Source of the DNA: Alkanindiges illinoisensis DSM 15370
GTDB lineage: Bacteria; Pseudomonadota; Gammaproteobacteria; Pseudomonadales; Moraxellaceae
Direction: 5' to 3'
DNA length: 32,000 nucleotides
NCBI RefSeq assembly: GCF_000619845.1
Contig: NZ_JHUX01000003.1
Location: 430,064 to 462,063 of the forward strand
Part shown: positions 1 to 26,519 of the stretch, in pieces
How positions within the stretch are numbered: position 1 is the first letter of the stretch
Layout: every line of letters starts with the position of its first letter
Program-made: the position numbers and the translations under genes
Notes under the pieces: generated by a model
Seen by the model: only the letters and a program-made list of their open reading frames with translations
Database searches by the model: none
What the model was told of the DNA's origin: nothing

Positions 1-289
1 CTCACCGTTAGGGATAAACCAGCAAGCCGTAAGCGGTGCATTTTATGCAGTGCCACCGCAAATCTGCCGCGATGAGGCCAAACTGGATGAACATATTAAT
101 ATTTTACGGGACTTGATGAGCCGGATGAAAGTGCCCGTGCATTTAACCCGCTTGGGCTATACCGTGATCGCGCGTTACCTGGGCAACGATACCCGGCAAT
201 GTCTGGATGCCTTTGCAGGTTTGCGCGCCAAATGCCGCCGCGAATGGTTTGGTCTGGATGAAGAACTCCCAAGGATCTGGAAAACCTGA
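1..289 (+). CDS. ureD: Urease accessory protein UreD, 3-prime partial (5-prime end is upstream of the window)
   Basis: Frame 2 is open from base 2 to TGA 287-289, so the track's GTG at 50 is internal. The C-terminus ...RYLGNDTRQCLDAFAGLRAKCRREWFGLDEELPRIWKT matches the characteristic UreD tail (K. aerogenes UreD ends ...LPRIWLT). It lies directly upstream of ureABC. Confidence 0.85.
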   Translation, partial: SPLGINQQAVSGAFYAVPPQICRDEAKLDEHINILRDLMSRMKVPVHLTRLGYTVIARYLGNDTRQCLDAFAGLRAKCRREWFGLDEELPRIWKT

Positions 290-379
290 TACTTATATCA
301 ATTGCTGGTTTATTCATCATTAAACGCAAAATTTGCATACTTCTTGCTTTTATTAAAATGTTAACAAAAGAGCTTACCT

Positions 380-682
380 ATGGAACTGACCCCAACCGAA
401 AAAGACAAGATGCTAATTTTTACTGCCGGGCTGGTGGCAGAACGGCGAAAAGCTCGTGGATTAAAGCTCAATTATCCCGAAGCAGTTGCCTATATTTCCG
501 CAGCACTACTGGAAGGGGCACGTGATGGCCGTAGTGTGAGTGATCTGATGCATTATGGTACGACACTGCTGACGCGGGATGATGTGATGGATGGCGTGGC
601 AGACATGATTGCCGAGGTTCAGGTGGAAGCGACCTTTCCCGATGGTAGCAAGCTGGTGACCGTGCATCAGCCTATTATGTAA
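380..682 (+). CDS. ureA: Urease gamma subunit
   Basis: 100-aa ORF with the canonical UreA sequence: [14 protein letters not shown]..., [31 protein letters not shown]. Confidence 0.97.
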
Positions 683-705
683 ATAGCAATAATAAGGAAC
701 AGTAC

Positions 706-1011
706 ATGATTCCCGGTGAAACTTTTGTGGAAGCTGGTGACATTGAAATTAATGCAGGCCGTCAAACTATGCGAATTGATGTCAGCAACCATGGGGATCG
801 TCCCATCCAAATTGGTTCGCACTTTCATTTTTATGAAGTCAATGACTCACTGGTATTTGAGCGTGAGCAAAGCAAAGGCTTTCGCCTGAATATTCCAGCG
901 GGTACAGCCGTGCGTTTTGAGCCGGGGCAAGTGCGGCAGGTTGAACTGGTAGCCCTTGCCGGCAAGCGTGAAGTGTATGGCTTTGCCGGACGGGTAATGG
1001 GCGCACTTTAA
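706..1011 (+). CDS. ureB: Urease beta subunit
   Basis: 101-aa ORF starting MIPGE. It carries the conserved [19 protein letters not shown] motif, and an AAGGA Shine-Dalgarno lies upstream. Confidence 0.97.
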
Positions 1012-1052
1012 TTGTTAAAGAAAAAAATAGAAGATTTTAGGAAGCATACCCT

Positions 1053-2753
1053 ATGAAAATGTCGCGCCGTGCTTATAGTGAAATGTTTGGCCCGACCAAA
1101 GGTGACCGGGTTCGGCTGGCAGATACCGAACTGCTGCTTGAGGTTGAACACGACTACACCTGCTATGGTGAAGAGGTGAAATTTGGTGGCGGCAAGGTCA
1201 TTCGGGATGGTATGGGCCAGTCCCAGCTGAATGCTGAATTTGTCGCCGATACCGTAATTACCAATGCGCTGATTGTGGACTGGTGGGGTATTGTTAAAGC
1301 CGATGTGGGGCTTAAAAATGGCCGGATCTGGAAAATTGGTAAGGCGGGTAATCCCGATATTCAGCCTGATATTGATATTCCGCTAGGGGCAGCGACCGAA
1401 GTGATTGCCGGTGAAGGGCAGATTTTAACCGCAGGCGGCGTGGATACCCATATTCACTGGATTTGCCCGCAACAGGTGGAAACCGCCTTAATGTCCGGTG
1501 TAACGACCATGATTGGTGGTGGTACGGGGCCTGCTGCTGGAACATCTGCCACCACAGTGACGCCGGGGCCGTGGCATATTGCGACCATGTTGAAATCAAT
1601 TGATAGCCTGCCGATGAATATTGGCTTGCTGGGTAAAGGGAATTTAAGTTTGCCTGAGCCCATTGCCGAGCAAATCAGGGCAGGTGTGGTGGGCTTAAAG
1701 CTGCATGAGGACTGGGGATCAACCCCGGCAGCAATTGATAACTGCCTGACGGTGGCTGACCAGTACGATGTGCAGGTTGCCATCCATACCGATACCTTGA
1801 ATGAAAGCGGTTTTCTGGAAGCTACCTTAGGCGCATTTAAGGACCGCACTATTCATACCTATCATACTGAAGGCGCAGGCGGTGGCCATGCACCCGACAT
1901 TTTAAAAGCGATTGGGCAGGCCAATGTGTTGCCGTCCTCAACCAATCCCACCCGTCCGTACACCATCAACACTATTGATGAGCATCTGGACATGCTGATG
2001 GTGTGTCATCACCTGGACCCTGCCATCAGCGAAGATGTGGCATTTGCTGAAAGCCGGATTCGCCGTGAAACCATTGCCGCCGAAGATATTTTGCAGGACA
2101 TGGGTGCGATTGCCATGATGAGTTCCGACTCGCAGGCCATGGGACGTGTGGGCGAGGTGATTATTCGAACCTGGCAAACTGCCCACAAGATGAAAGTGCA
2201 GCGTGGCCCGCTGGATGGCGATTCTGAGCGCAATGATAACCACCGTATTAAGCGTTATATTGCCAAATACACCATTAATCCGGCCATTACGCATGGCATT
2301 GCCCATGAAGTGGGTTCAGTAGAAGTAGGCAAGCTGGCTGATCTGGTGTTGTGGAAACCGGCATTTTTTGGCGTGAAGCCGTCCATGATTATTAAAGGTG
2401 GCATGATTGCGGCTGCACCGATGGGTGATATCAATGCTTCCATTCCAACGCCGCAGCCAGTGCATTATCGTCCGATGTTTGCTGCATTGCCGGATGGCGT
2501 GCATGCGTCCTGCATCACCTTTTTATCGCAGGTTGCTATTGAGAATGGCGTGGCTGAGCAGTTGGGCCTCAAGAAAATGATTAGCCCGGCCAAAAATACC
2601 CGAAATATCCGCAAGACCGACATGAAGCACAATGATTATTTACCGGTGATGGAAGTACACCCGGAAACCTATGTGGTGAAAGCCGATGGTGTGCATTTAA
2701 CCTGTGAGCCAGCAGATGTGTTGCCGATGGCGCAGCGGTATTTTTTGTTTTAG
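1053..2753 (+). CDS. ureC: Urease alpha (catalytic) subunit
   Basis: 566 aa. Motifs seen: [29 protein letters not shown] (Ni-ligand His pair), GLKLHEDWG (carbamylated-Lys region), MVCHHLD, and C-terminal MAQRYFLF. Confidence 0.98.
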
Positions 2754-2759
2754 GATTTG

Positions 2760-3524
2760 ATGATTCATATGAAAGAGTATTCGGCCTCAGAGTTACATCA
2801 CACTTTCGATACAGAGAAAATTTTTGATGAATTTATTTCAAGTATTGGGGGAGTCGTTATTAAGAATGGTCTGAGGGGTAATCCCAATTTTTTGAATTCG
2901 GATTATTCTTTTCTTCATAAGCATAGAAAAATTTATGTAGAGCTGAAAAGCTTGCAAAATGATTTTGCTGAGATATGTAAATTACAGTCCAAAATAGAAA
3001 GCTTATATCGAAAGTGGATTGACCGTGGAGAAATAACGCTCTCTGCGATATTTAATTTCAATGAACTAACGGATTTTCAGAGAAGGAAAGTAGTCGAGGT
3101 TAAATACGAGCCAGTTAGACGTGTACTTAAAAAAGCAAATCAACAGATTAAGTCAACAGCACTGAGTTTTGGAGCGGAGAGCTATTCTGGATTGGTCATT
3201 TTGATAATTGATGGTGTTAAAGCTATTGAGTTTAATAACCTATTTTCGGCAATTTGTATGCTTCTGCAAAAAGAAAAATTTAGTGGCATTGACGGTTTTG
3301 TTTTGATGACTATGAATCACTATGTTGATATTGGTAATAAGCAAGCAAGACAGTTATGGGTTCCTGCTTATGAAGATGATAATAATATTGAGCTATCAGA
3401 ATTTGTAAATTGGCTAGGTAGTAAATGGTTTGAGTTTTTCTCTAACCTCATAGGTGGGTTTGAACATGACCCAATAATAACGGATTCTATAGAGCCGTTA
3501 AGGAATACTAAGAATATTTTTTGA
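2760..3524 (+). CDS. Hypothetical protein with a PD-(D/E)xK-like motif; AT-rich insertion inside the urease operon
   Basis: An uninterrupted 255-codon ORF (track start TTG 2757; ATG at 2760 and 2769; AGGA at 2752-2755). It begins a few nt after the ureC stop and ends 8 nt before the ureE ATG. It is markedly AT-rich compared with its neighbours. Motif: D49(NSDYSF)-x12-E62-L-K64 (KIYVELK), preceded by an acidic helix. I recognise no named family. Confidence 0.6.
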   Translation: MIHMKEYSASELHHTFDTEKIFDEFISSIGGVVIKNGLRGNPNFLNSDYSFLHKHRKIYVELKSLQNDFAEICKLQSKIESLYRKWIDRGEITLSAIFNFNELTDFQRRKVVEVKYEPVRRVLKKANQQIKSTALSFGAESYSGLVILIIDGVKAIEFNNLFSAICMLLQKEKFSGIDGFVLMTMNHYVDIGNKQARQLWVPAYEDDNNIELSEFVNWLGSKWFEFFSNLIGGFEHDPIITDSIEPLRNTKNIF

Positions 3525-3532
3525 GATAGAAA

Positions 3533-4003
3533 ATGAACATTTACACCCAGCGATTACCTATTGATTTTCAACCCCAAGGCGATATCCAAATTATCGCTTT
3601 AAATTATGACACCCGGCAGAAGTGTCGCTTCCGTGCCACTTTAGATAATGGTCAGGACATTGGCGTGGACTTGCCGCGGACTGGCGTGTTGCGTGGTGGT
3701 GCCTATATCGGTACAGAAACTGGTGAAGTATTGAAAATTCAGGCCGCTCCGGAAAAACTGCTGTGCGTGACTGCTAATGAGCCATTTGATTTGCTAAAGG
3801 CAGCCTATCATCTGGGTAACCGTCATGTGCCACTCATGCTCACACCGGCGGCCTTATATCTGGAACCGGATTATGTGCTGGCCGATATGGTGCGCGGTTT
3901 GGGTTTGAAAGTAGAAGAAGTCATGCATCCATTTGAGCCGGAAAGCGGTGCATACGCCCAGCATCAGCACGACAATCGCTTGCGTCCCTATGTCCCTCAT
4001 TAA
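3533..4003 (+). CDS. ureE: Urease accessory (nickel metallochaperone) protein UreE
   Basis: 156 aa, in the canonical operon position. It has the conserved [11 protein letters not shown] motif and a His-containing tail (QHQHD...VPH). Confidence 0.9.
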
Positions 4004-4012
4004 AGCTAAGCC

Positions 4013-4726
4013 ATGCCCATTACTGAATTGATATCTGACAGTAGCAGTGCAATGAACGCCGCCAGTTTGCTTAAGCTGTTGACCTTGTCTTCTACCGCCT
4101 TGCCCATTGGCGCATATTGCTATTCGCAGGGCGTGGAAAGCGCAATTGAGTGTGGTCTGGTGAGTAATGAAAAAAATGCACTGGCTTATTTTGAAGATGT
4201 ACTGGACTTATTGCTGGTGCGTTATGAGTTGCCGATGCTGGCACAGTTAATTGATGCCGCAAAATCGGTGGCAACGCAACCTGATGAATATACCCGGCTG
4301 GCTAGCGACTATAAAGCCAGCCGCGAAACCCGTGAGTTTTTGCTGGAAAGTCAGCAACTGGCTTTTTCACTCAACGCATGGATTAAACAGGTGCTGGGGC
4401 TAGAGGTCCAGGTAGAGTCGCATTATGGTTTTGTGCCAGTGTATGCGCAGTTATGTGCACGTTTGAATTTGCAGCCACAAGACTGTCTGACGGCTTATTG
4501 TTTTAGCGTACTGGAAAATCAGGTACTCGCCGCAGTGAAAACCGTGCCGCTCGGACAGATGAGCGGCCAGCGAATTTTATGGCAACTGCATCAGCGTATG
4601 CCAGAAGCGATCCAGCAGGCATTAAATTTGCAAGATGCTAAACAACCTTTAAGCAGTAATTTACCCAATTTTGCCATGTTGTCCATGCAACATGAAAACC
4701 AGTATTCACGGCTGTTCCGGTCGTAA
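4013..4726 (+). CDS. ureF: Urease accessory protein UreF
   Basis: 237 aa between ureE and ureG. The N-terminal [14 protein letters not shown] matches the UreF signature region. Confidence 0.9.
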
Positions 4727-4757
4727 ATATTTTATTCAGTCATTTTCAGGAATTAAT

Positions 4758-5372
4758 ATGTCAGAACGTAGTCCACTTCGAGTCGGCATTGGAGGCCCGG
4801 TTGGTTCGGGTAAAACAGCCCTTACCTTAAATCTGTGCCTTGCCTTGCGTGATAAATACAATATGGCGGTGGTCACTAATGATATTTATACCAAGGAAGA
4901 CTCCAACTTTTTAACCCGCAATCAAGCCATGACTCCAGACCGGATTGTCGGGGTCGAAACGGGCGGTTGTCCACATACCGCCATCCGGGAAGATGCTTCG
5001 ATTAATCTGGCGGCTATTGATGACCTGAATAACAAGTTTGCTGGACTTGAGCTGATTATTATTGAAAGTGGTGGGGATAACCTGGCTGCAACCTTTAGTC
5101 CTGAGCTGTCTGATTTAACCTTATATGTCATTGATGTGGCCGCTGGGGAAAAAATCCCGCGTAAGGGTGGACCCGGCATTACCAAGTCTGACCTGCTGAT
5201 TATCAACAAGACTGACCTGGCGCCAATGGTAGGGGCGTCGCTCGAAGTGATGGATCAGGATGCCAAACGTATGCGGGGTGAGCGACCATTTCTGTTTTCC
5301 AACATGAAAACCAAAGATGGCCTAAATGACATTATTGCCTTTATTGAAAAGCAAGGTCTATTCAAGAATTAA
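4758..5372 (+). CDS. ureG: Urease accessory GTPase UreG
   Basis: P-loop [11 protein letters not shown], Cys-Pro-His nickel motif ([11 protein letters not shown]), ESGGDNL and NKTDLA. The start is moved to ATG 4758 (AGGA 8 nt upstream); the track ORF from 4671 is an upstream extension overlapping ureF. Confidence 0.95.
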
Positions 5373-5391
5373 CTCCGATTGAGGAAAAATC

Positions 5392-5949
5392 ATGCGATTT
5401 TTATTACTGACGTTACTGGCAGTTTCAGGTGCTGCACTGGCACATCCGGGCCATGAATACAGTCATTCTGCCTTGCTGGCGGGGTTGCTGCATCCATTGT
5501 CGGGACTGGATCATTTAACCATGGGCCTGGGTTTGGGAATTTTGCTGGCGCGCACTTTTAAGCAGGCACGCTTTATGGGACTGGCATTGTTACTGGTCAC
5601 ACTCAGTGCTGGTTTTATGCTGGGCATGGCACAGATTGTTCCTGTTAACATCGCAGAATATGGCATTGTGGCATCGTTGCTGGTATTGGCGATTGCATTG
5701 TGGCAGCGTTCTACCTCAGTATTTTTGGCAATGGCTGCGCTGCTGGGCATATTCCACGGACTGGCGCACGGCGCTGAATTAGGGACTGAGATGAATCCGG
5801 TAGGCTTTATGATGGGCATGCTAATTACGTTAAGCGCACTCTACAGTGTTGGCCTGGTTGCAGGGCAATGGATCAAGCGTCATATCAAGCAAGGTGACCG
5901 TGTAGTTGCTGTGCTAACTGGTGTGGTTGCATTGCTGGGACTGGCTTAA
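5392..5949 (+). CDS. ureJ: HupE/UreJ family nickel transporter
   Basis: 185 aa. A signal peptide is followed by HPGHEYSH, and LSGLDHL and HGLAHG motifs are present. The protein is multi-TM and lies last in the urease cluster. Confidence 0.88.
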   Translation: MRFLLLTLLAVSGAALAHPGHEYSHSALLAGLLHPLSGLDHLTMGLGLGILLARTFKQARFMGLALLLVTLSAGFMLGMAQIVPVNIAEYGIVASLLVLAIALWQRSTSVFLAMAALLGIFHGLAHGAELGTEMNPVGFMMGMLITLSALYSVGLVAGQWIKRHIKQGDRVVAVLTGVVALLGLA

Positions 5950-5974
5950 ACCCAAGGTTTTTTATCGTAAATAG

Positions 5975-6008
5975 ACCTGCTGATCATCGTTAGTTGGCAG
6001 GTTTTTAT
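5975..6008 (+). terminator. Rho-independent terminator of the urease cluster
   Basis: ACCTGC (5975-5980) pairs with GCAGGT (5997-6002), extendable by wobble pairs, and is followed by TTTTTAT. It lies 26 nt after the hupE/ureJ stop. Confidence 0.6.
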
Positions 6009-6375
6009 CGTATGTTGAAATTAAAAAAATTAACCAGTTCGCTTTTATCCTAGTCCAGTCTGATCAAAGGATTTTCCCCAGTTTATTTTCAATTCCATAC
6101 TGAAGGCATGATTCAGTACAACTGTTTTAAGCAGGGTACACCTTTAGGCCCTGTTACGCTCTTGTGAAATGAGCTAAGTAGGGTGCCATGCACAAGGAGC
6201 CTATCGTGAAGCAAGAGTACCTTAAGACAAAAGTACCCTGGTTTGATGTGAAGCCGCTGATAAGCTTTAATCTATACCGATAATAATCTTTAAGTTGCTA
6301 GTATGCCTCAACAGCTAAATAATAATGTTAAAAGAGCAGGATCAGATCAATAGACCGAATCACTGCATTTGACGT

Positions 6376-6669
6376 TCAAATTCCGCACACACTGCAATTC
6401 ATGCCCTTGCAATTATGCAGTACCGAGTTACGGGCAGCATTTTTTTCAGTGCCCGGCCCGCTAATGCCTTTACCGGCCAGTTGTTCAGCCTTACTTTGCG
6501 GTTGCCATTTGTAGTTGGTTTTAAACTGCACCCGTCCAGTGAGCAGGGGCTTGGCCGGCGTTGCCTGCTGGCAGTAGTGGCAACTAATTTCGCTGGACAG
6601 CTCGGAAACGGCCAGCTGTTGTTCAAAAATACCGTCGCAATGCTGGCAACGAATGTCATATAAGGGCAT
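6376..6669 (-). CDS. fmdB: FmdB-family zinc-ribbon putative regulatory protein
   Basis: 97 aa. N-terminal MPLYDIRCQHC-(x18)-CHYC is the CxxC...CxxC ribbon typical of the FmdB family. AAGGAG lies 8 nt upstream, and the gene is immediately downstream of the formamidase gene. Confidence 0.8.
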   Translation of the reverse strand: MPLYDIRCQHCDGIFEQQLAVSELSSEISCHYCQQATPAKPLLTGRVQFKTNYKWQPQSKAEQLAGKGISGPGTEKNAARNSVLHNCKGMNCSVCGI

Positions 6670-6763: not shown

Positions 6764-7942
6764 TTAGCGCTCATGGCCCCAATATTTTTTCTCACTCAGC
6801 ATGCCTTTGGGCAGGATGTCCTGCTCAAAAATACCGGTGGGCAGTGAAATGGTGCAGGCACAGTTGGGAATATCCACAATGCCACCAATGCGGCCTTCAA
6901 CCGGTGCCGCTGTAAGCAGCATATACGCCTGACTACCGGTAAAGCCAAAGTTTTCCAGATATTTAATTGCTTTTAAACAGGCCTGTCGATAAGCCACAGT
7001 GGCATCCAGATAGTAGTTCACGCCATTTTCCACGCTGATGCCTTCAAAGGTGAGCCATTCGTCGTAGTTGGGTTTGACCGGACTGGGAATAAAAATGGGC
7101 GCGTCGATGTTGTACTTGGCCATACCGCCCTTAATCAGGTCAAAGCCCACGCGGGTCACGCCATCCATTTCAATGGCGCCACAAAAGCCAATTTCACCAT
7201 CGCCTTGCGAGAAGTGCAAATCACCCATCGAAAACCCGGCTCCCGCCACATACACCGGAAAGAAAATCCGCGAACCTGCCGATAAGTCCTTGATATCCGT
7301 ATTTCCACCGTGTTCACGCGGTGGCACCGTACGTGCGGCCTCGCTTGCCATACGGTCAAACTCGGCGCCTTGCAAGCCACGTAGTACCGCAGTGCGCGGG
7401 TCGGGGGGATTGGCCTGACCTTTGGGCACCAGCAGCGCTTCACGGCGGTTCCATTCCTTGAGCAAGTCCATAGAGGGCAGGCAACCCATCAAGCCCGGAT
7501 GGGTGAGGCCAGCAATCCGCACGCCCGGAATATGCCGTGAGGTGGCATACAGACCTTTTAAATCCCAAATGGCTTTGTCGGCATCGGGGAAATAATCGGC
7601 CAGAAAGCCACCGCCATTTTCCTTGGCAAATACACCGGAAAACCCAATCGGGGTGACCGGTTTAATATCTAGCAGGTCAATCACCAGCAAGTCGCCCGGT
7701 TCAGCGCCTTCCACGTAAAAGGGTCCGGTTAACGGATGCGCACGGGTCAGGTCAACATTAATAATATCGTCAACGGTGTCGGTATCCTTGATTTGTGCAT
7801 CCAGAAAATCCAGACTTTCCAGCAGGATTTCTTCGCCTGGCTTGACCGAGGTTAAAAACGGAATGTCCGGGTGCCAGCGGTTATGCCCCAGTTCAGCTTG
7901 TTCGGCTAGCGGTATCCCGGGTTTAATTTTGATATGTTGCAT
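6764..7942 (-). CDS. fmdA: Formamidase / acetamidase-family amidohydrolase
   Basis: FmdA_AmdA-family motifs: HNRWHPDIP, GPFYVEGAEPGDLLVID, FAKENGGGFL, TVPPREHGGNTDIKDL, GDLHFSQGDGEI.FCGAIEM. The start is set at ATG 7942 (MQHIK..., GAGGA 9 nt upstream); the track's 8044 start adds 34 poorly coding residues. Confidence 0.9.
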   Translation of the reverse strand: MQHIKIKPGIPLAEQAELGHNRWHPDIPFLTSVKPGEEILLESLDFLDAQIKDTDTVDDIINVDLTRAHPLTGPFYVEGAEPGDLLVIDLLDIKPVTPIGFSGVFAKENGGGFLADYFPDADKAIWDLKGLYATSRHIPGVRIAGLTHPGLMGCLPSMDLLKEWNRREALLVPKGQANPPDPRTAVLRGLQGAEFDRMASEAARTVPPREHGGNTDIKDLSAGSRIFFPVYVAGAGFSMGDLHFSQGDGEIGFCGAIEMDGVTRVGFDLIKGGMAKYNIDAPIFIPSPVKPNYDEWLTFEGISVENGVNYYLDATVAYRQACLKAIKYLENFGFTGSQAYMLLTAAPVEGRIGGIVDIPNCACTISLPTGIFEQDILPKGMLSEKKYWGHER

Positions 7943-8070
7943 GATGGTGTCCTCGGTATGTGCATGGTGTTGCGACTTGAATTTACGATCAGGTTGCCAA
8001 GGCATTGGCGGTGAAAAAGCGTTCCGGTCAGGAGGTCTGGTCAAGCGATTGTTTGCATTGCCAGTTCAAG

Positions 8071-9141
8071 CTATGAATTAACCGGATGCGCCATAACGGC
8101 GAATTGCCGGTTTTTGACCGTCATATACAGTTGCTGCTGTTCTGGGTGCTCAAGGATAAAACGCGCCAGTACCGGTTCCAGTTGGGTACGAAACTTGCGC
8201 GCCAGATCACGCGCGCCAAAGCGCACACGATGCTGACGGCTGAGCAGTGCCCGTGTGCTGGCATCAAGGCGGATACTGCGGCCCTGTTTGCGCAGGCGGG
8301 TGTTCAACTTATCCAGTTCAATATCAATCAATGCGGCCAGCCACTGTTTGGCCACGGGCTGGTAATGCAAAATCCTGTCAATCCGGTTTAAAAATTCAGG
8401 ATCAAACTGCTGGTGCAGGGCTTTTTCAGTGATTTGCCGAGGTGATTTGCCCAGTTGTTGACAAAGCATTTGAACCGGTTTGGGTAGTCTGGAAAAATAA
8501 TTCAGCGCGTTTTGTGCCTGACGTGCGCCCACGTTACTGGTCATAAAAATCAGGCTGTTTTTAAAATCAATGGTTTTGCTGCCAGAAGACAAAGTCAGCG
8601 TGCCGCTATCAAGTATATTGAGCAGGCTACGAATCACCTCTGTGCTGGCTTTTTCCAGCTCATCAAACAGCACAATGCCGGGTTTGCTAAAACTGCCCTG
8701 TATCGCCTCAATGTCAAATAACGTGGTGCCTTCCTTGCTGCCGACATAACCCGGCGGCGCTCCAGTCAGCGCGGCGGCATAGTGTTCCTGCGCCAGCGTA
8801 TTCATATCAATACGGCAAAAGGCATTGGGACGGCCATAAATTGCCTCGCTAATCAGCCGTACGGTTTCGGTTTTGCCCACGCCGGTTGAACCCAGCATCA
8901 GCGTGACCGACAACGGGCGCTCGGTGCTGGAAAAATCAGCCTTGACCACATTGAGCATGTTTTCAATTTCGTCCAGTGCAGCCTCTTGCCCAATAATGCG
9001 TGCGCGCAAATGCTGCATCACCACTTTTGGTTCAAACGCAAAGCGTGAGGTGTTCAAACGCTGCTGGCTGGCGGCATCGGCATGGCGTTGCTGTGCATTG
9101 GTCTCGCGGTTGTGTTCCAGCACATCATTAATAAACGGCAT
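8071..9141 (-). CDS. amiB: AmiB-like AAA+ (Clp-related) ATPase
   Basis: Walker A GSTGVGKTE and Walker B VLFDELEKA. It directly follows amiE, as amiB does in the P. aeruginosa amiEBCRS operon. ATG 9141 is preferred over the track's TTG 9162. Confidence 0.75.
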   Translation of the reverse strand: MPFINDVLEHNRETNAQQRHADAASQQRLNTSRFAFEPKVVMQHLRARIIGQEAALDEIENMLNVVKADFSSTERPLSVTLMLGSTGVGKTETVRLISEAIYGRPNAFCRIDMNTLAQEHYAAALTGAPPGYVGSKEGTTLFDIEAIQGSFSKPGIVLFDELEKASTEVIRSLLNILDSGTLTLSSGSKTIDFKNSLIFMTSNVGARQAQNALNYFSRLPKPVQMLCQQLGKSPRQITEKALHQQFDPEFLNRIDRILHYQPVAKQWLAALIDIELDKLNTRLRKQGRSIRLDASTRALLSRQHRVRFGARDLARKFRTQLEPVLARFILEHPEQQQLYMTVKNRQFAVMAHPVNS

Positions 9142-9198
9142 TGCTAAACCCTTTTTGCTCAATTTGCTGTACTAGCCCTTTCCTGTCAGGTAAAACGC

Positions 9199-10239
9199 TT
9201 AAGCCTCTTTTTCCAGTCCTTCATGCGGCAGGTTGCCAATCGGGCATTCAGCCACGCCAATGGTAGAGCGAGTAAAGCTTTCGACATTGGCCTGTGCTTT
9301 TTCGGCATCCAGCACCCATGTGCGGTAAAAATCAAACGGGCAGGTGGCTACACCCTTGTCGCCATCGCCATTGTTGTAAACGCCGGTGTAACCACGATGC
9401 AGCAGCTTGAACAAATGATTTTGTGCCTGATCGTACTTGCGCGCATCGCGGATTTCGGGGATGGATAATTGCGCGTACTGAATGCCATTTTCTTCTTCGC
9501 CACATTCGCCTAAGGTGCGGCCATCAAAACCCACAATGGCTGAATGACCAAAATAGGTATACACGCCATCAAAACCGGTGCAGTTGGCGACAGCCACATA
9601 GCAGTTGTTGGCCCAAGCCATGGTTTTGGCCATCATGATCTGCTGTTCCTTGGCGGGGTACATATAACCCTGACAGCGCACAATCAGCTCGGCGCCTTTC
9701 ATGGCACAGTCACGCCAGATTTCGGGATAGTTGCCGTCATCACAGATAATCAGGGAAATTTTTAAGCCTTTGGGGCCAACCGACACATAAGTCTGATCGC
9801 CTGGACACCAGCCTTCAATCGGGCACCACGGGATTACCTTGCGGTATTTCTGCACAATCTCGCCGTCGTTATTAATCAGTACCAGCGTGTTGTATGGTAC
9901 TTTCTGCGGGTGCTGTTCATGCCGTTCGCCGGTAATGGAAAACACGCCCCACACATTGGCCTGCTTGCACGCCGCCGAGAAAATCGCGGTTTCATCACCG
10001 GGAATAGTGGCGGCGGTTTCCATCATTTCGCTCTGGTCATACATGATGCCCATGGTGCTGTATTCGGGAAAAATCACCAGATCCATACCGGGCAAACCCT
10101 GCTTCATGCCAATCAGCATGTCAGCAATTTTTTTGGCATTGTCCAGCACTTCGGCTTTGGTGTGCAGGCGTGGAATGCGATAGTTCACTACGGCCACACC
10201 CACGGTACTGGGACTGCTTGAAATATCGCCATGACGCAT
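9199..10239 (-). CDS. amiE: Aliphatic amidase (nitrilase superfamily)
   Basis: 346 aa, colinear by eye with P. aeruginosa AmiE from [17 protein letters not shown] to [23 protein letters not shown]. Catalytic contexts are present: FPE59YS, KYRK134VIPW, LIIC166DDGNYPE. A GAAGGAAG SD lies upstream. Confidence 0.97.
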
Positions 10240-20712: not shown

Positions 20713-21114
20713 TTATTCCAGTACCTGTTGATAAGGCTTAAAGCCATCCATGATAGCATTAGCGATGAGATAAAGATGAGCTGCCTGTTGATGATACCAC
20801 TCGATAAACTGGTTCATTTTGTCAGCAATGATTGAATGATCCGGTGGAGTATAGGAAGCACCCGTAATAAGTACATTATTTTGCCAATAGCGACCAGCGT
20901 TCTCATAATCAATGTTTTTCAGGATGAGCTGATGAATATTACGAATTTGCCACTCTGAAAAAGGTTCATATTTTTTGATAATGTCTTCAACAAAAAAAAT
21001 GTCATTGCGATGGTTAATGGCTTCAAAGTGCTCACGGATTGCTTTACCACCCACCGTAATGCCCTCAAGAACAACTTTGGTTTCAAGTAAAGTCAGTGTA
21101 TAGGAATTTTCCAA
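20713..21114 (-). pseudogene. Fic-domain gene remnant, truncated at both ends with the catalytic motif lost
   Basis: The sequence TLTLLETKVVLEGITVGGKAIREHFEAINHRNDIFFVEDIIKKYEPFSEWQIRNIHQLILKNIDYENAGRYW matches the conserved pre-motif region of Fic proteins (IEGNTLTL.ET..VLE.GITIGGK.L.EH.EAINH). The ORF begins at a TTG with no N-terminal domain. It ends at ...NAIMDGFKPYQQVLE, where HPFxDGNGR would be expected. AT-rich non-coding DNA flanks it on both sides. Confidence 0.6.
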
Positions 21115-25345: not shown

Positions 25346-25771
25346 ATGACTGGTGAAAAACCTGAGATTATGCATGCCCATAAAGAAAAAATTGATTTCA
25401 GGTACAGTTTTGAGATCAGTGGTTTTAAAAAATCTACAGGGAAAGGCACCATCATTATTGATGATCAATTGCCGGATGAAGAAATTAAGCAACTTATCAA
25501 TGACTTTGTATTAAAAAAAGTCCGTGAATTCCTGAAGGGAAAAACCATTACCCCCCAAGGAAATTTTACGATTAGTACCAATATTGAAATCACTAAAATT
25601 TCCCGGTTAGCGCCCTTGAATAACATGATTTATCCGGGGGATGAATCAGGGCAGGTGACTAGCCGTAAATACATCGTGTTTATTGTGGGAGTAGCTTTTG
25701 TGCTCCTGATGTTTTGGGTAGTGCTGCTTAATACACCGTCGCTCTCTTCAATAAAATGGCAGAGTCACTAA
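25346..25771 (+). CDS. Hypothetical tail-anchored membrane protein
   Basis: 141-aa ORF with AAGG 8 nt upstream. It has a Lys/Glu-rich soluble N-terminal part and one C-terminal TM helix (YIVFIVGVAFVLLMFWVVLL). No family recognised. Confidence 0.5.
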   Translation: MTGEKPEIMHAHKEKIDFRYSFEISGFKKSTGKGTIIIDDQLPDEEIKQLINDFVLKKVREFLKGKTITPQGNFTISTNIEITKISRLAPLNNMIYPGDESGQVTSRKYIVFIVGVAFVLLMFWVVLLNTPSLSSIKWQSH

Positions 25772-25910
25772 ACCACTAAACTCGTACACCGCCAGACTTA
25801 AATCTATAAAAAGAAAGTTAATGAAAGTTGTACTTCATTCATTTTTCAGGCTTTCTGGTCAGCTATGATGATGTTTTATAACAATACTCATTAAATAGAG
25901 CCTTGAGCAT

Positions 25911-26519
25911 ATGCAAAATTGTGAACGTGTGGTGTTTATCAGCACGATCAGTACTGAGCTGATTGATCTGGCAGAAACGCTCCAGCAACTTCGAAATAGT
26001 GGAATCGCCTATCACGTGCGTGAGGAGGTAACCGGGCTATTGCTGTATAGCGAACAGTATATCTTTCATTGCATCGAAAGCAGGCATGGCGGAATGGATC
26101 AGTTCAAGCACGATTTAATGGCTTATCCTCATTATCGTCATCAAAAGCTGATCTATGAACAGGCTGGCGTTGAGCCTCGATTCAAGCGCTGGAGCATGGT
26201 ATATGCAATTACCGAAACACATATTCAGGATTTTATCCAGAAACAGCGCTGGTCTACATTTAATCCCTACCTGCTGGAAGGAGCAGTGCTTGATGAGTTT
26301 ATGGAGCTGATATATAGCTATGGTAACAACCACAATACTGTAGTGATTCAGGCTAATGACCAGGTTAATTCCAGCTATCAGCCTACTCAAGCCACACTTG
26401 GCAACCCTAAAAAAACCTGCGGTATGCTCATGATTGCACTGGGCTTATTGCTAGGGGTTATTATCTATGGCCTGAATTACTTTGGGCTAATGCCCGACAG
26501 CTATAGTAAAAGCTGGTAA
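25911..26519 (+). CDS. Hypothetical protein with a degenerate BLUF-like N-terminal domain and a C-terminal TM anchor
   Basis: The pattern VVFISTIS...(x25)...VTGLLLYSEQYIFHCIES...YRHQ...RFKRWSMVYA follows the BLUF layout (hYxLIYxS ... ITGxLLY..xxFxQxLEG ... DxRH ... RxFxxWSM). A C-terminal TM helix is present (CGMLMIALGLLLGVIIYGLNYFGL). Confidence 0.45.
   Translation: MQNCERVVFISTISTELIDLAETLQQLRNSGIAYHVREEVTGLLLYSEQYIFHCIESRHGGMDQFKHDLMAYPHYRHQKLIYEQAGVEPRFKRWSMVYAITETHIQDFIQKQRWSTFNPYLLEGAVLDEFMELIYSYGNNHNTVVIQANDQVNSSYQPTQATLGNPKKTCGMLMIALGLLLGVIIYGLNYFGLMPDSYSKSW

Follow-up and report, generated by a model that had tools for sequence, protein, structure and literature searches.

We analyzed a window of 32,000 nucleotides from Alkanindiges illinoisensis DSM 15370 (contig NZ_JHUX01000003.1, positions 430,064 to 462,063 of the forward strand; coordinates below count from the first nucleotide of this stretch), which contains a urease gene cluster. 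Our analysis concerns the open reading frame (ORF) located at 2757-3524 on the forward strand between ureC and ureE, hereafter called ORFX. Depending on the start codon, ORFX is 251-255 codons long and it occupies the whole ureC-ureE gap: ureC ends with the TAG at 2751-2753, ORFX ends with the TGA at 3522-3524 and the ATG of ureE is found 8 nt further, at 3533. These positions agree with an earlier description of the gene as wedged between ureC and ureE, which had been made from the DNA letters of the window alone (the sequence-only reading). The following features define the locus:

1053-2753, forward strand: ureC (urease alpha subunit), left anchor of the cassette site, whose 3' end is conserved across all compared loci
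2752-2755, forward strand: AGGA, putative Shine-Dalgarno sequence for ORFX, read from the sequence and overlapping the TAG of ureC
2760-3524, forward strand: ORFX, probable PD-(D/E)xK-type nuclease of an unnamed family (PHROG 20483), with starts at TTG 2757, ATG 2760 and ATG 2769
3533-4003, forward strand: ureE, right anchor of the cassette site

The TTG at 2757 merely marks where the ORF mechanically begins, and the recorded gene call for P0001, the 251-aa protein of the window itself, begins at ATG 2769. We favored ATG 2760 as the likely start of ORFX because the AGGA motif sits 4 nt upstream. The stretch tagGATTTGATGATTC surrounding this motif and the ureC stop is kept in the orthologous locus L001. 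Judging from the letters, the overlap between AGGA and the ureC stop would imply read-through transcription together with translational coupling to ureC, and it is most likely in this manner that ORFX is expressed with the ure operon. When scanning positions 1-6500, we found no promoter- or terminator-like consensus on the forward strand at the borders of ORFX, and consensus matches of this type were not more common in this region than in shuffled sequence. This result is in line with the earlier proposal that the gene possesses neither a promoter nor a terminator of its own.

ORFX is AT-rich: its G+C is 0.339 and its GC3 is 0.30, compared with 0.47-0.52 for the genes from ureA to ureJ and 0.479 for the whole window. 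The sequence-only reading had interpreted this composition as the result of horizontal acquisition. The AT-richness itself is confirmed, but since the G+C of ORFX is 0.32-0.34 in both Alkanindiges species and since its synonymous divergence is similar to that of its flanks (see below), the low G+C represents a stable trait and is no proof of recent import.

ORFX is a real gene under purifying selection. This was established by comparison with P0002, a 78%-identical orthologue found at the same ureC-X-ureE position on metagenomic contigs, which yielded a ratio of nonsynonymous to synonymous substitution rates (dN/dS) of 0.175 for a dS of 0.74. In the same comparison, the flanking ure genes presented dN/dS values of 0.01-0.10 and dS values of 0.77-1.6.

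We then characterized the family to which ORFX belongs. An exhaustive HMMER search over 1.84 billion representatives identified 425 clusters (50% identity) at E <= 1e-3 and 165 at E <= 1e-10, so that the gene is not the orphan it had been called. Most members are stand-alone proteins of ~250 residues. The family is visible only with this exhaustive approach, a word-indexed protein search having returned just two proteins with the ORFX query and seven with the profile. Its sole label is PHROG 20483 (function unknown), which ORFX matches with an E-value of 2e-8 over residues 48-180 and which is also matched by 94 of 102 members. As initially suspected, no named family fits the protein. ORFX presented no match to Pfam, even at E <= 10, and none to NCBIfam or to PDB sequences; the family profile did not match PDB sequences either, and PADLOC-DB 2.0 returned only a chance-level match of ORFX to Cmr5 (E 0.025, 12.9 bits). 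Searching Pfam with the 102 members revealed faint matches to REase-ARP in two of them (E 0.013) and to CdiA_C in one (0.033). We observed no informative domain fusions among the longer family members and no match in the plasmid collection, and we found nothing relevant in the literature on the urease of Alkanindiges, on phage AbIPP1 or on the urease clusters of Acinetobacter.

The conserved residues of the family were identified from an alignment of 102 sequences (mean column identity of 21%). Residues are counted here from ATG 2769, and D49, E62 and K64 of the 255-aa ORF therefore correspond to D45, E58 and K60. The relevant codons and segments of ORFX are:

2814-2816, forward strand: codon of E16, acidic residue of the first core helix (15-25), present in at least 90% of homologues
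2901-2903, forward strand: codon of D45 (D49 of the 255-aa ORF), invariant, opening the second core strand and belonging to the motif N-[AS]-D-Y-x-F
2940-2948, forward strand: codons of E58-L59-K60 (E62-L-K64 of the 255-aa ORF), third core strand, with invariant E and K (K codon at 2946-2948)
2961-3104, forward strand: helical insertion (residues 65-112; helices 65-85, 91-94 and 102-112) between the ExK strand and the KKANxQ helix
3144-3146, forward strand: codon of Q126, invariant, on the helix K-K-A-N-x-Q-I-K-x-T (114-133) that precedes the fourth strand

Only four columns of the alignment are invariant: D45, E58, K60 and Q126 (Q130 in the 255-aa numbering). The first three are also invariant in a second alignment (A5). 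E16, N43, A44, L59, A123 and T130 are among the residues present in at least 90% of the 102 homologues, and three family motifs can be recognized: N-A-D-Y-x-F, V-I-A-E-L-K and K-K-A-N-x-Q-I-K-x-T. The three residues that the sequence-only reading had singled out as a nuclease motif are present as described and did not vary in any of the 102 homologues.

The AlphaFold2 model of ORFX based on the 102-sequence alignment reached a pLDDT of 94.1 and a pTM of 0.90. From the N-terminus, it comprises a helix at 15-25 that bears E16, a short strand at 29-30, a strand at 46-50 with D45 just before it and a strand at 53-62 that contains ExK. The rest of the model consists of helices at 65-133, with Q126 on the last one, a strand at 139-147, a helix at 155-169 and a strand at 176-181. 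We read this topology from the order of the DSSP elements of the predicted structure, not from coordinates, and in the model this order is the one expected of a PD-(D/E)xK core. ORFX thus carries the D/ExK signature and the predicted core topology of the PD-(D/E)xK superfamily; it presents no sequence-profile match to a named family of the PD-(D/E)xK clan.

Because the helical insert that follows the ExK strand was suspected of hiding the fold, we deleted it before repeating the Foldseek search. The construct without residues 66-112 (47 residues), which was modeled with the full-length homologues as alignment, gave a pLDDT of 94.1 and a pTM of 0.91. Its top matches were SfsA bound to DNA (4dav; E 1.8e-3, probability 0.97) and BsmI (9f38; 3.5e-3, 0.97), and further matches included MGME1, Hjc, RecU, the cap-snatching endonucleases of bunyaviruses and arenaviruses, HincII, SgrAI, PaqCI and the Avs4 nuclease. 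PD-(D/E)xK enzymes represent most of the top 50 matches of this model. We also considered that ORFX may not be a nuclease at all, its invariant D, E, K and Q serving another chemistry or binding a ligand within a fold that resembles PD-(D/E)xK only superficially. This alternative would account for the lack of a significant PDB or BFVD match of the full-length model and of any sequence-profile link to a PD-(D/E)xK family. However, the motifs follow the canonical order and spacing and occupy the canonical places on helix 1, strand 2 and strand 3, and the matches obtained after removal of the insert are dominated by PD-(D/E)xK enzymes, which makes a non-nuclease quite improbable. The nuclease fold proposed from the letters alone is therefore supported: no search assigned a non-nuclease fold, and the core-only model retrieved PD-(D/E)xK enzymes as top matches, although with borderline E-values. 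Based on these models, a PD-(D/E)xK fold is probable for ORFX, which would be a single-domain and probably metal-dependent nuclease. We infer that the protein is catalytic and that its substrate is DNA.

The relatives of ORFX were frequently found in mobile elements. Homologues with 30-32% identity were found in the Acinetobacter phage AbIPP1 and in a related prophage. Their slot is the same in both: it follows the replication genes, a Holliday-junction-resolvase-like gene and the conserved gene of PHROG 5656, and it precedes the terminase region. The copy of Legionella pneumophila belongs to an island with an integrase, DUF927 and AbiEii, and other copies adjoin SocA_Panacea, Uma2, an AAA_15/21 ATPase or CopG. 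Several distant family members are tightly packed behind housekeeping genes (L068 3127-6386, L089/L092 2071-5705 and L025 5954-10311): one is flanked by cobT and a nitroreductase gene, another comes directly after polA (starts overlap) and the third is found after polA plus a DUF433/DUF5615 pair. Overall, these gene neighborhoods suggest that prophages, integrative islands and neighborhoods of toxin-antitoxin or defence genes are the main habitats of the family.

This distribution raises the possibility that ORFX is a phage-derived nuclease of the recombination or resolvase type that was left in the chromosome and is tolerated there with no further present role. The temperate Acinetobacter phages carry their homologues in the early-right region near the Holliday-junction-resolvase-like gene, Hjc and RecU are among the structural matches, and the copy of Acinetobacter wanghuae is decaying. 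However, a dN/dS of 0.175 and catalytic residues that are all intact in two species point to a maintained function, and there are no other phage genes nearby in the window. We therefore regard a mere phage remnant as improbable.

To search for partner genes, we conducted a census based on Pfam for 134 neighbor proteins from ~40 loci, of which the 25 most common families were considered. Reverse transcriptases were found four times and SocA_Panacea, integrase, RES and DUF5677 twice each, mixed with housekeeping genes, while Shedu SduA, Uma2, pPIWI nucleases and a resolvase were each found once. Neither a methyltransferase nor a recurrent partner appeared among these 25 families. A partnership with the reverse transcriptases (RVT_1, 4 of 134 neighbors) was considered and dropped, a motif check of 12 long neighbor ORFs having revealed no consistent partner. 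In the window itself, there is no room for an antitoxin or methyltransferase partner beside ORFX, and its opposite strand contains no ORF of at least 50 aa.

When species-representative genomes were scanned with UreE, the window fell within Alkanindiges. The ureC|ureE junction presents a different content in related genomes. In A. hydrocarboniclasticus H1, a gene for a 285-residue DUF2971 protein (L008 5144-6001, forward strand; Pfam E 7e-10) is found at the junction instead of ORFX. With a G+C of 0.33, this gene overlaps the ureC stop at its beginning and the ureE ATG at its end; the protein also matches the phage family PHROG 1762. In A. illinoisensis (L009 5106-5874, reverse strand) and in a metagenome-assembled genome (MAG) of Moraxellaceae (L010 5119-5951, reverse strand), the junction encodes VapC (PIN domain) and a Phd/YefM antitoxin. 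As this vapBC pair points against the ure operon, ureEFG may need a promoter of their own there. The junction of an Aquirhabdus MAG is empty (37 nt). In Moraxella osloensis, where UreB and UreC are apparently fused in one ORF of 696 residues (L013 3668-5758, forward strand), the ureC-ureE spacer of ~240 nt contains only a small cysteine-rich ORF and no homologue of ORFX. The junction attracts toxin-antitoxin modules outside Moraxellaceae too, since a Comamonas sp. MAG (beta-proteobacterium; L020 5206-5813, reverse strand) carries Doc (Fic family, E 9e-17) and a MazE-type antitoxin (E 6e-10) between ureC and ureE.

Sequence identity changes abruptly around these alternative genes. The ORFX-bearing contigs L001 and L002 are 100% identical to strain H1 until 300 nt before the ureC stop, after which identity drops to 0.80-0.96; on the right side, identity is 0.66-0.94 across the first ~550 nt, which cover ureE and the beginning of ureF, before rising again to ~1.00. 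The window is 0.88-1.00 identical to A. illinoisensis, but only 0.60-0.70 at 3533-3632 (the first ~100 nt of ureE) and 0.8-1.0 further on. UreC of the window is 96-99% identical to the UreC of Alkanindiges (98.9% for A. illinoisensis) and 89% identical to that of A. wanghuae. The bounded tracts show allelic replacement of the cassettes within species by homologous recombination in the flanking ure genes, whose high conservation would allow cassettes to be swapped between strains. In these comparisons, the junction is a small cassette hotspot and ORFX one of several alternative cargos. Because sister strains carry a toxin-antitoxin pair or a phage-type gene at this site, ORFX is best viewed as a swappable selfish or defence cargo and not as a part of the urease system.

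The closest members of the family are all found after ureC; besides the window and P0002, these are the A. wanghuae copy and P0004. In A. wanghuae, the copy (53-55% identity; L021 4074-10663) belongs to a cluster with the unusual order ureE-F-G-D-A-B, GNAT acetyltransferase, ureC and X, with REP-like palindromic repeats between ureC and the homologue of ORFX. This homologue is frameshifted, its N-terminal 26 codons being in another frame (9922-10002). P0004 (42-44% identity) is located ~100 nt after a ureC stop on contigs of ~30% G+C. Either ORFX is an old resident that diverges roughly five times faster than UreC, or it is to some degree faithful to this site.

One explanation of this link, which the sequence-only reading had offered as its alternative, is that ORFX is an unrecognized urease-associated factor, for instance one that regulates or processes within the operon and is kept through acting with UreC. 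In all four of the closest homologues, ureC is the gene immediately upstream, the packing of the genes suggests translational coupling, and purifying selection acts on ORFX. However, strains that are 99-100% identical in ureC and in ureF-ureJ carry unrelated cargo and no ORFX, the Aquirhabdus junction is empty and the ~240 nt of Moraxella osloensis lack a homologue. Moreover, none of 80 metagenomic loci of distant relatives (27-37% identity) contains urease genes, the A. wanghuae copy is frameshifted, and ORFX presents no similarity to UreD, UreE, UreF, UreG or UreJ. A urease-associated factor is thus very improbable. Likewise, ORFX did not prove to be a conserved and compositionally typical ure gene, considering that near-identical strains possess vapBC or DUF2971 in its place.

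A second explanation is that ORFX is a free-standing homing-type endonuclease that cuts the 3' end of ureC, or the ureC|ureE junction, in alleles without ORFX, after which repair from an ORFX-bearing copy (e.g., through DNA uptake) copies the gene plus its adjacent flanks. The Moraxellaceae of this group are naturally competent, and PD-(D/E)xK homing endonucleases are known, I-Ssp6803I being one of them. ORFX presents the signature of such genes, namely insertion between conserved genes, polymorphism and divergent flanks: it is squeezed, nearly without spacer, between two genes of high conservation, it is present or absent within species, and the sharply bounded tracts of ~300 and ~550 nt resemble co-conversion tracts. 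Target-site fidelity would further predict the ureC adjacency of the four closest members despite identities of 42-78% and at least two layouts, and other family members are packed closely behind polA or between cobT and a nitroreductase gene. Yet the non-nuclease cargos of the site show the same signature, and the occurrence of vapBC, DUF2971 and Doc/MazE at this very position indicates that ordinary hotspot recombination explains the tracts without homing. In addition, many relatives are found in islands or prophages without an obvious conserved target gene, and an old vertical residence explains the ureC adjacency equally well. Homing by ORFX is therefore rather unlikely. A broader version of this scenario, in which ORFX and its ureC-linked relatives recognize the 3' end of ureC while sister clades recognize polA or cobT, amounting to an "intronless homing" in housekeeping operons, is also unlikely. 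If true, it would mean that such genes spread by homing among transformable Moraxellaceae and compete for the site with toxin-antitoxin cassettes.

Taken together, we consider it probable, albeit with reservations, that ORFX is a solitary DNA nuclease of the PD-(D/E)xK type, which belongs to a family linked to mobile elements and constitutes an exchangeable cargo with a selfish or defensive role rather than a step of urease maturation. ORFX would act for itself or for defence while riding on the ure operon. The sequence-only reading had proposed such a solitary defence or selfish gene, and the exchangeable site and the mobile-element relatives of ORFX support this proposal, the role itself being what they suggest. 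Several observations weigh against this interpretation. The full-length model yielded no significant structural match: against both PDB and BFVD, Foldseek returned mostly helical matches, the best of which were to helices of acetyl-CoA carboxylase (E 0.07) in PDB and to a capsid protein (E 8e-3) in BFVD. The supporting matches come from an engineered deletion model, with E-values that are all >1e-3 and TM-scores of 0.2-0.4, and neither ORFX nor its family profile gained a sequence match in Pfam, NCBIfam, PADLOC or PDB. Restriction and addiction are both hard to reconcile with a nuclease that stands alone, lacking a methyltransferase, an antitoxin or a sensor as partner. The dS of ORFX is close to that of its flanks, so that the gene may have resided there for long instead of having been imported recently. 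Finally, each of the four closest family members, the one of the window included, is found directly after ureC across at least two operon layouts, a linkage that is not predicted by a model of random hitch-hiking.

What is new here is an unnamed family within a known superfamily, with a distinctive helical insert, and an unusual micro-hotspot inside a urease operon. If our interpretation is correct, it provides a fold and a catalytic motif for a family of hundreds of clusters distributed across phages, islands and defence or toxin-antitoxin neighborhoods, and this family becomes a candidate for new solitary nucleases that serve defence or selfish spread. The locus also documents a very small and precisely bounded cassette hotspot within a housekeeping operon, whose recombination tracts reveal how cargo is swapped. 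It constitutes a tractable natural system for studying how selfish or defence genes colonize operons of essential function and compete for sites within them, as well as whether such cargo perturbs the expression of the downstream urease maturation genes.

Two copies of a short direct repeat flank most of ORFX:

2739-2747, forward strand: left copy of the 9-nt direct repeat TATTTTTTG, within the final codons of ureC
3515-3523, forward strand: right copy of TATTTTTTG, within the final codons of ORFX and offset by 776 nt relative to the left copy

This right copy is imperfect (TATTTTATG) in L001, the orthologous locus. The exact repeat could be a microhomology footprint or a chance occurrence in T-rich DNA. 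We did not accept it as a target-site duplication, given that L001 has only an imperfect version of it and the other cargos have none. The loss of one copy plus the intervening DNA would yield an intact ureC stop followed by AAA-ATG (ureE).

We also noted several features of the window besides ORFX. The Rfam model 5_ureB_sRNA matches the antisense strand of ureC (1203-1485, reverse strand; 78 bits, E 7e-19); the match probably reflects the conserved coding sequence of the urease alpha subunit, the sequence that underlies this model of a Helicobacter antisense RNA. Downstream of the ure cluster (6764-9162, reverse strand), we found a formamidase/acetamidase gene (FmdA_AmdA, E 4e-165) and a gene for an AAA_2/ClpB-like ATPase; with urease, they form a neighborhood of amide and urea nitrogen metabolism. 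A 133-residue ORF at 20713-21114 (reverse strand) contains a partial Fic/DOC domain (E 3e-5; profile positions 1-71 of 93) and may represent a truncated Fic gene; it sits in an AT-rich patch (G+C of ~0.37 over 20.5-21.5 kb). Another AT-rich patch (25346-26519, forward strand; G+C of ~0.38) contains two small genes, one encoding a 202-residue protein with a BLUF blue-light sensor domain (E 7e-7) and a hydrophobic C-terminal segment, and the other a 141-residue protein with no family match.

Finally, we compared ORFX to known systems. Like members of the PD-(D/E)xK superfamily, ORFX possesses an acidic residue in the first helix, a D that starts strand 2, ExK in strand 3 and a polar Q on the following helix, and its predicted order of elements is helix, three strands, helix, strand, helix and strand in a single domain of ~250 residues. 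It differs from them by the helices at 65-112 after the ExK strand, which hide the fold from Foldseek, by TM-scores of 0.2-0.4 and by having no profile relation to the named families. ORFX matches the hidden Markov model of PHROG 20483 and has homologues in phage AbIPP1 and a related prophage; in contrast to these phage members, it is chromosomal and lies in a housekeeping operon with no surrounding phage genes. The urease accessory proteins UreD, UreE, UreF, UreG and UreJ are not homologous to ORFX, which is absent from conspecific or near-conspecific strains and from the operons of Aquirhabdus and Moraxella.

The seg and mob homing genes of phage T4 and I-Ssp6803I resemble ORFX in their setting, all being small AT-rich nuclease genes between conserved genes, with a presence that varies among close relatives and divergent tracts that flank the insert. 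Unlike the T4 genes, ORFX resides in a bacterial chromosome and shares its site with non-nuclease cargos, and no search that we ran revealed homology between I-Ssp6803I and ORFX. In contrast to Mrr-type type IV restriction enzymes and Shedu SduA, ORFX has no PADLOC match and no DNA-modification reader or sensor domain, but these systems likewise consist of a nuclease of the same superfamily that has no cognate methyltransferase and is found among defence and toxin-antitoxin genes. Although VapBC of A. illinoisensis and Doc/MazE of Comamonas are two-gene units on the opposite strand, whereas ORFX stands alone, without an antitoxin, on the strand of the operon, they share with ORFX an identical ureC|ureE position, a presence that varies among strains and their membership in mobile or addictive classes of genes.

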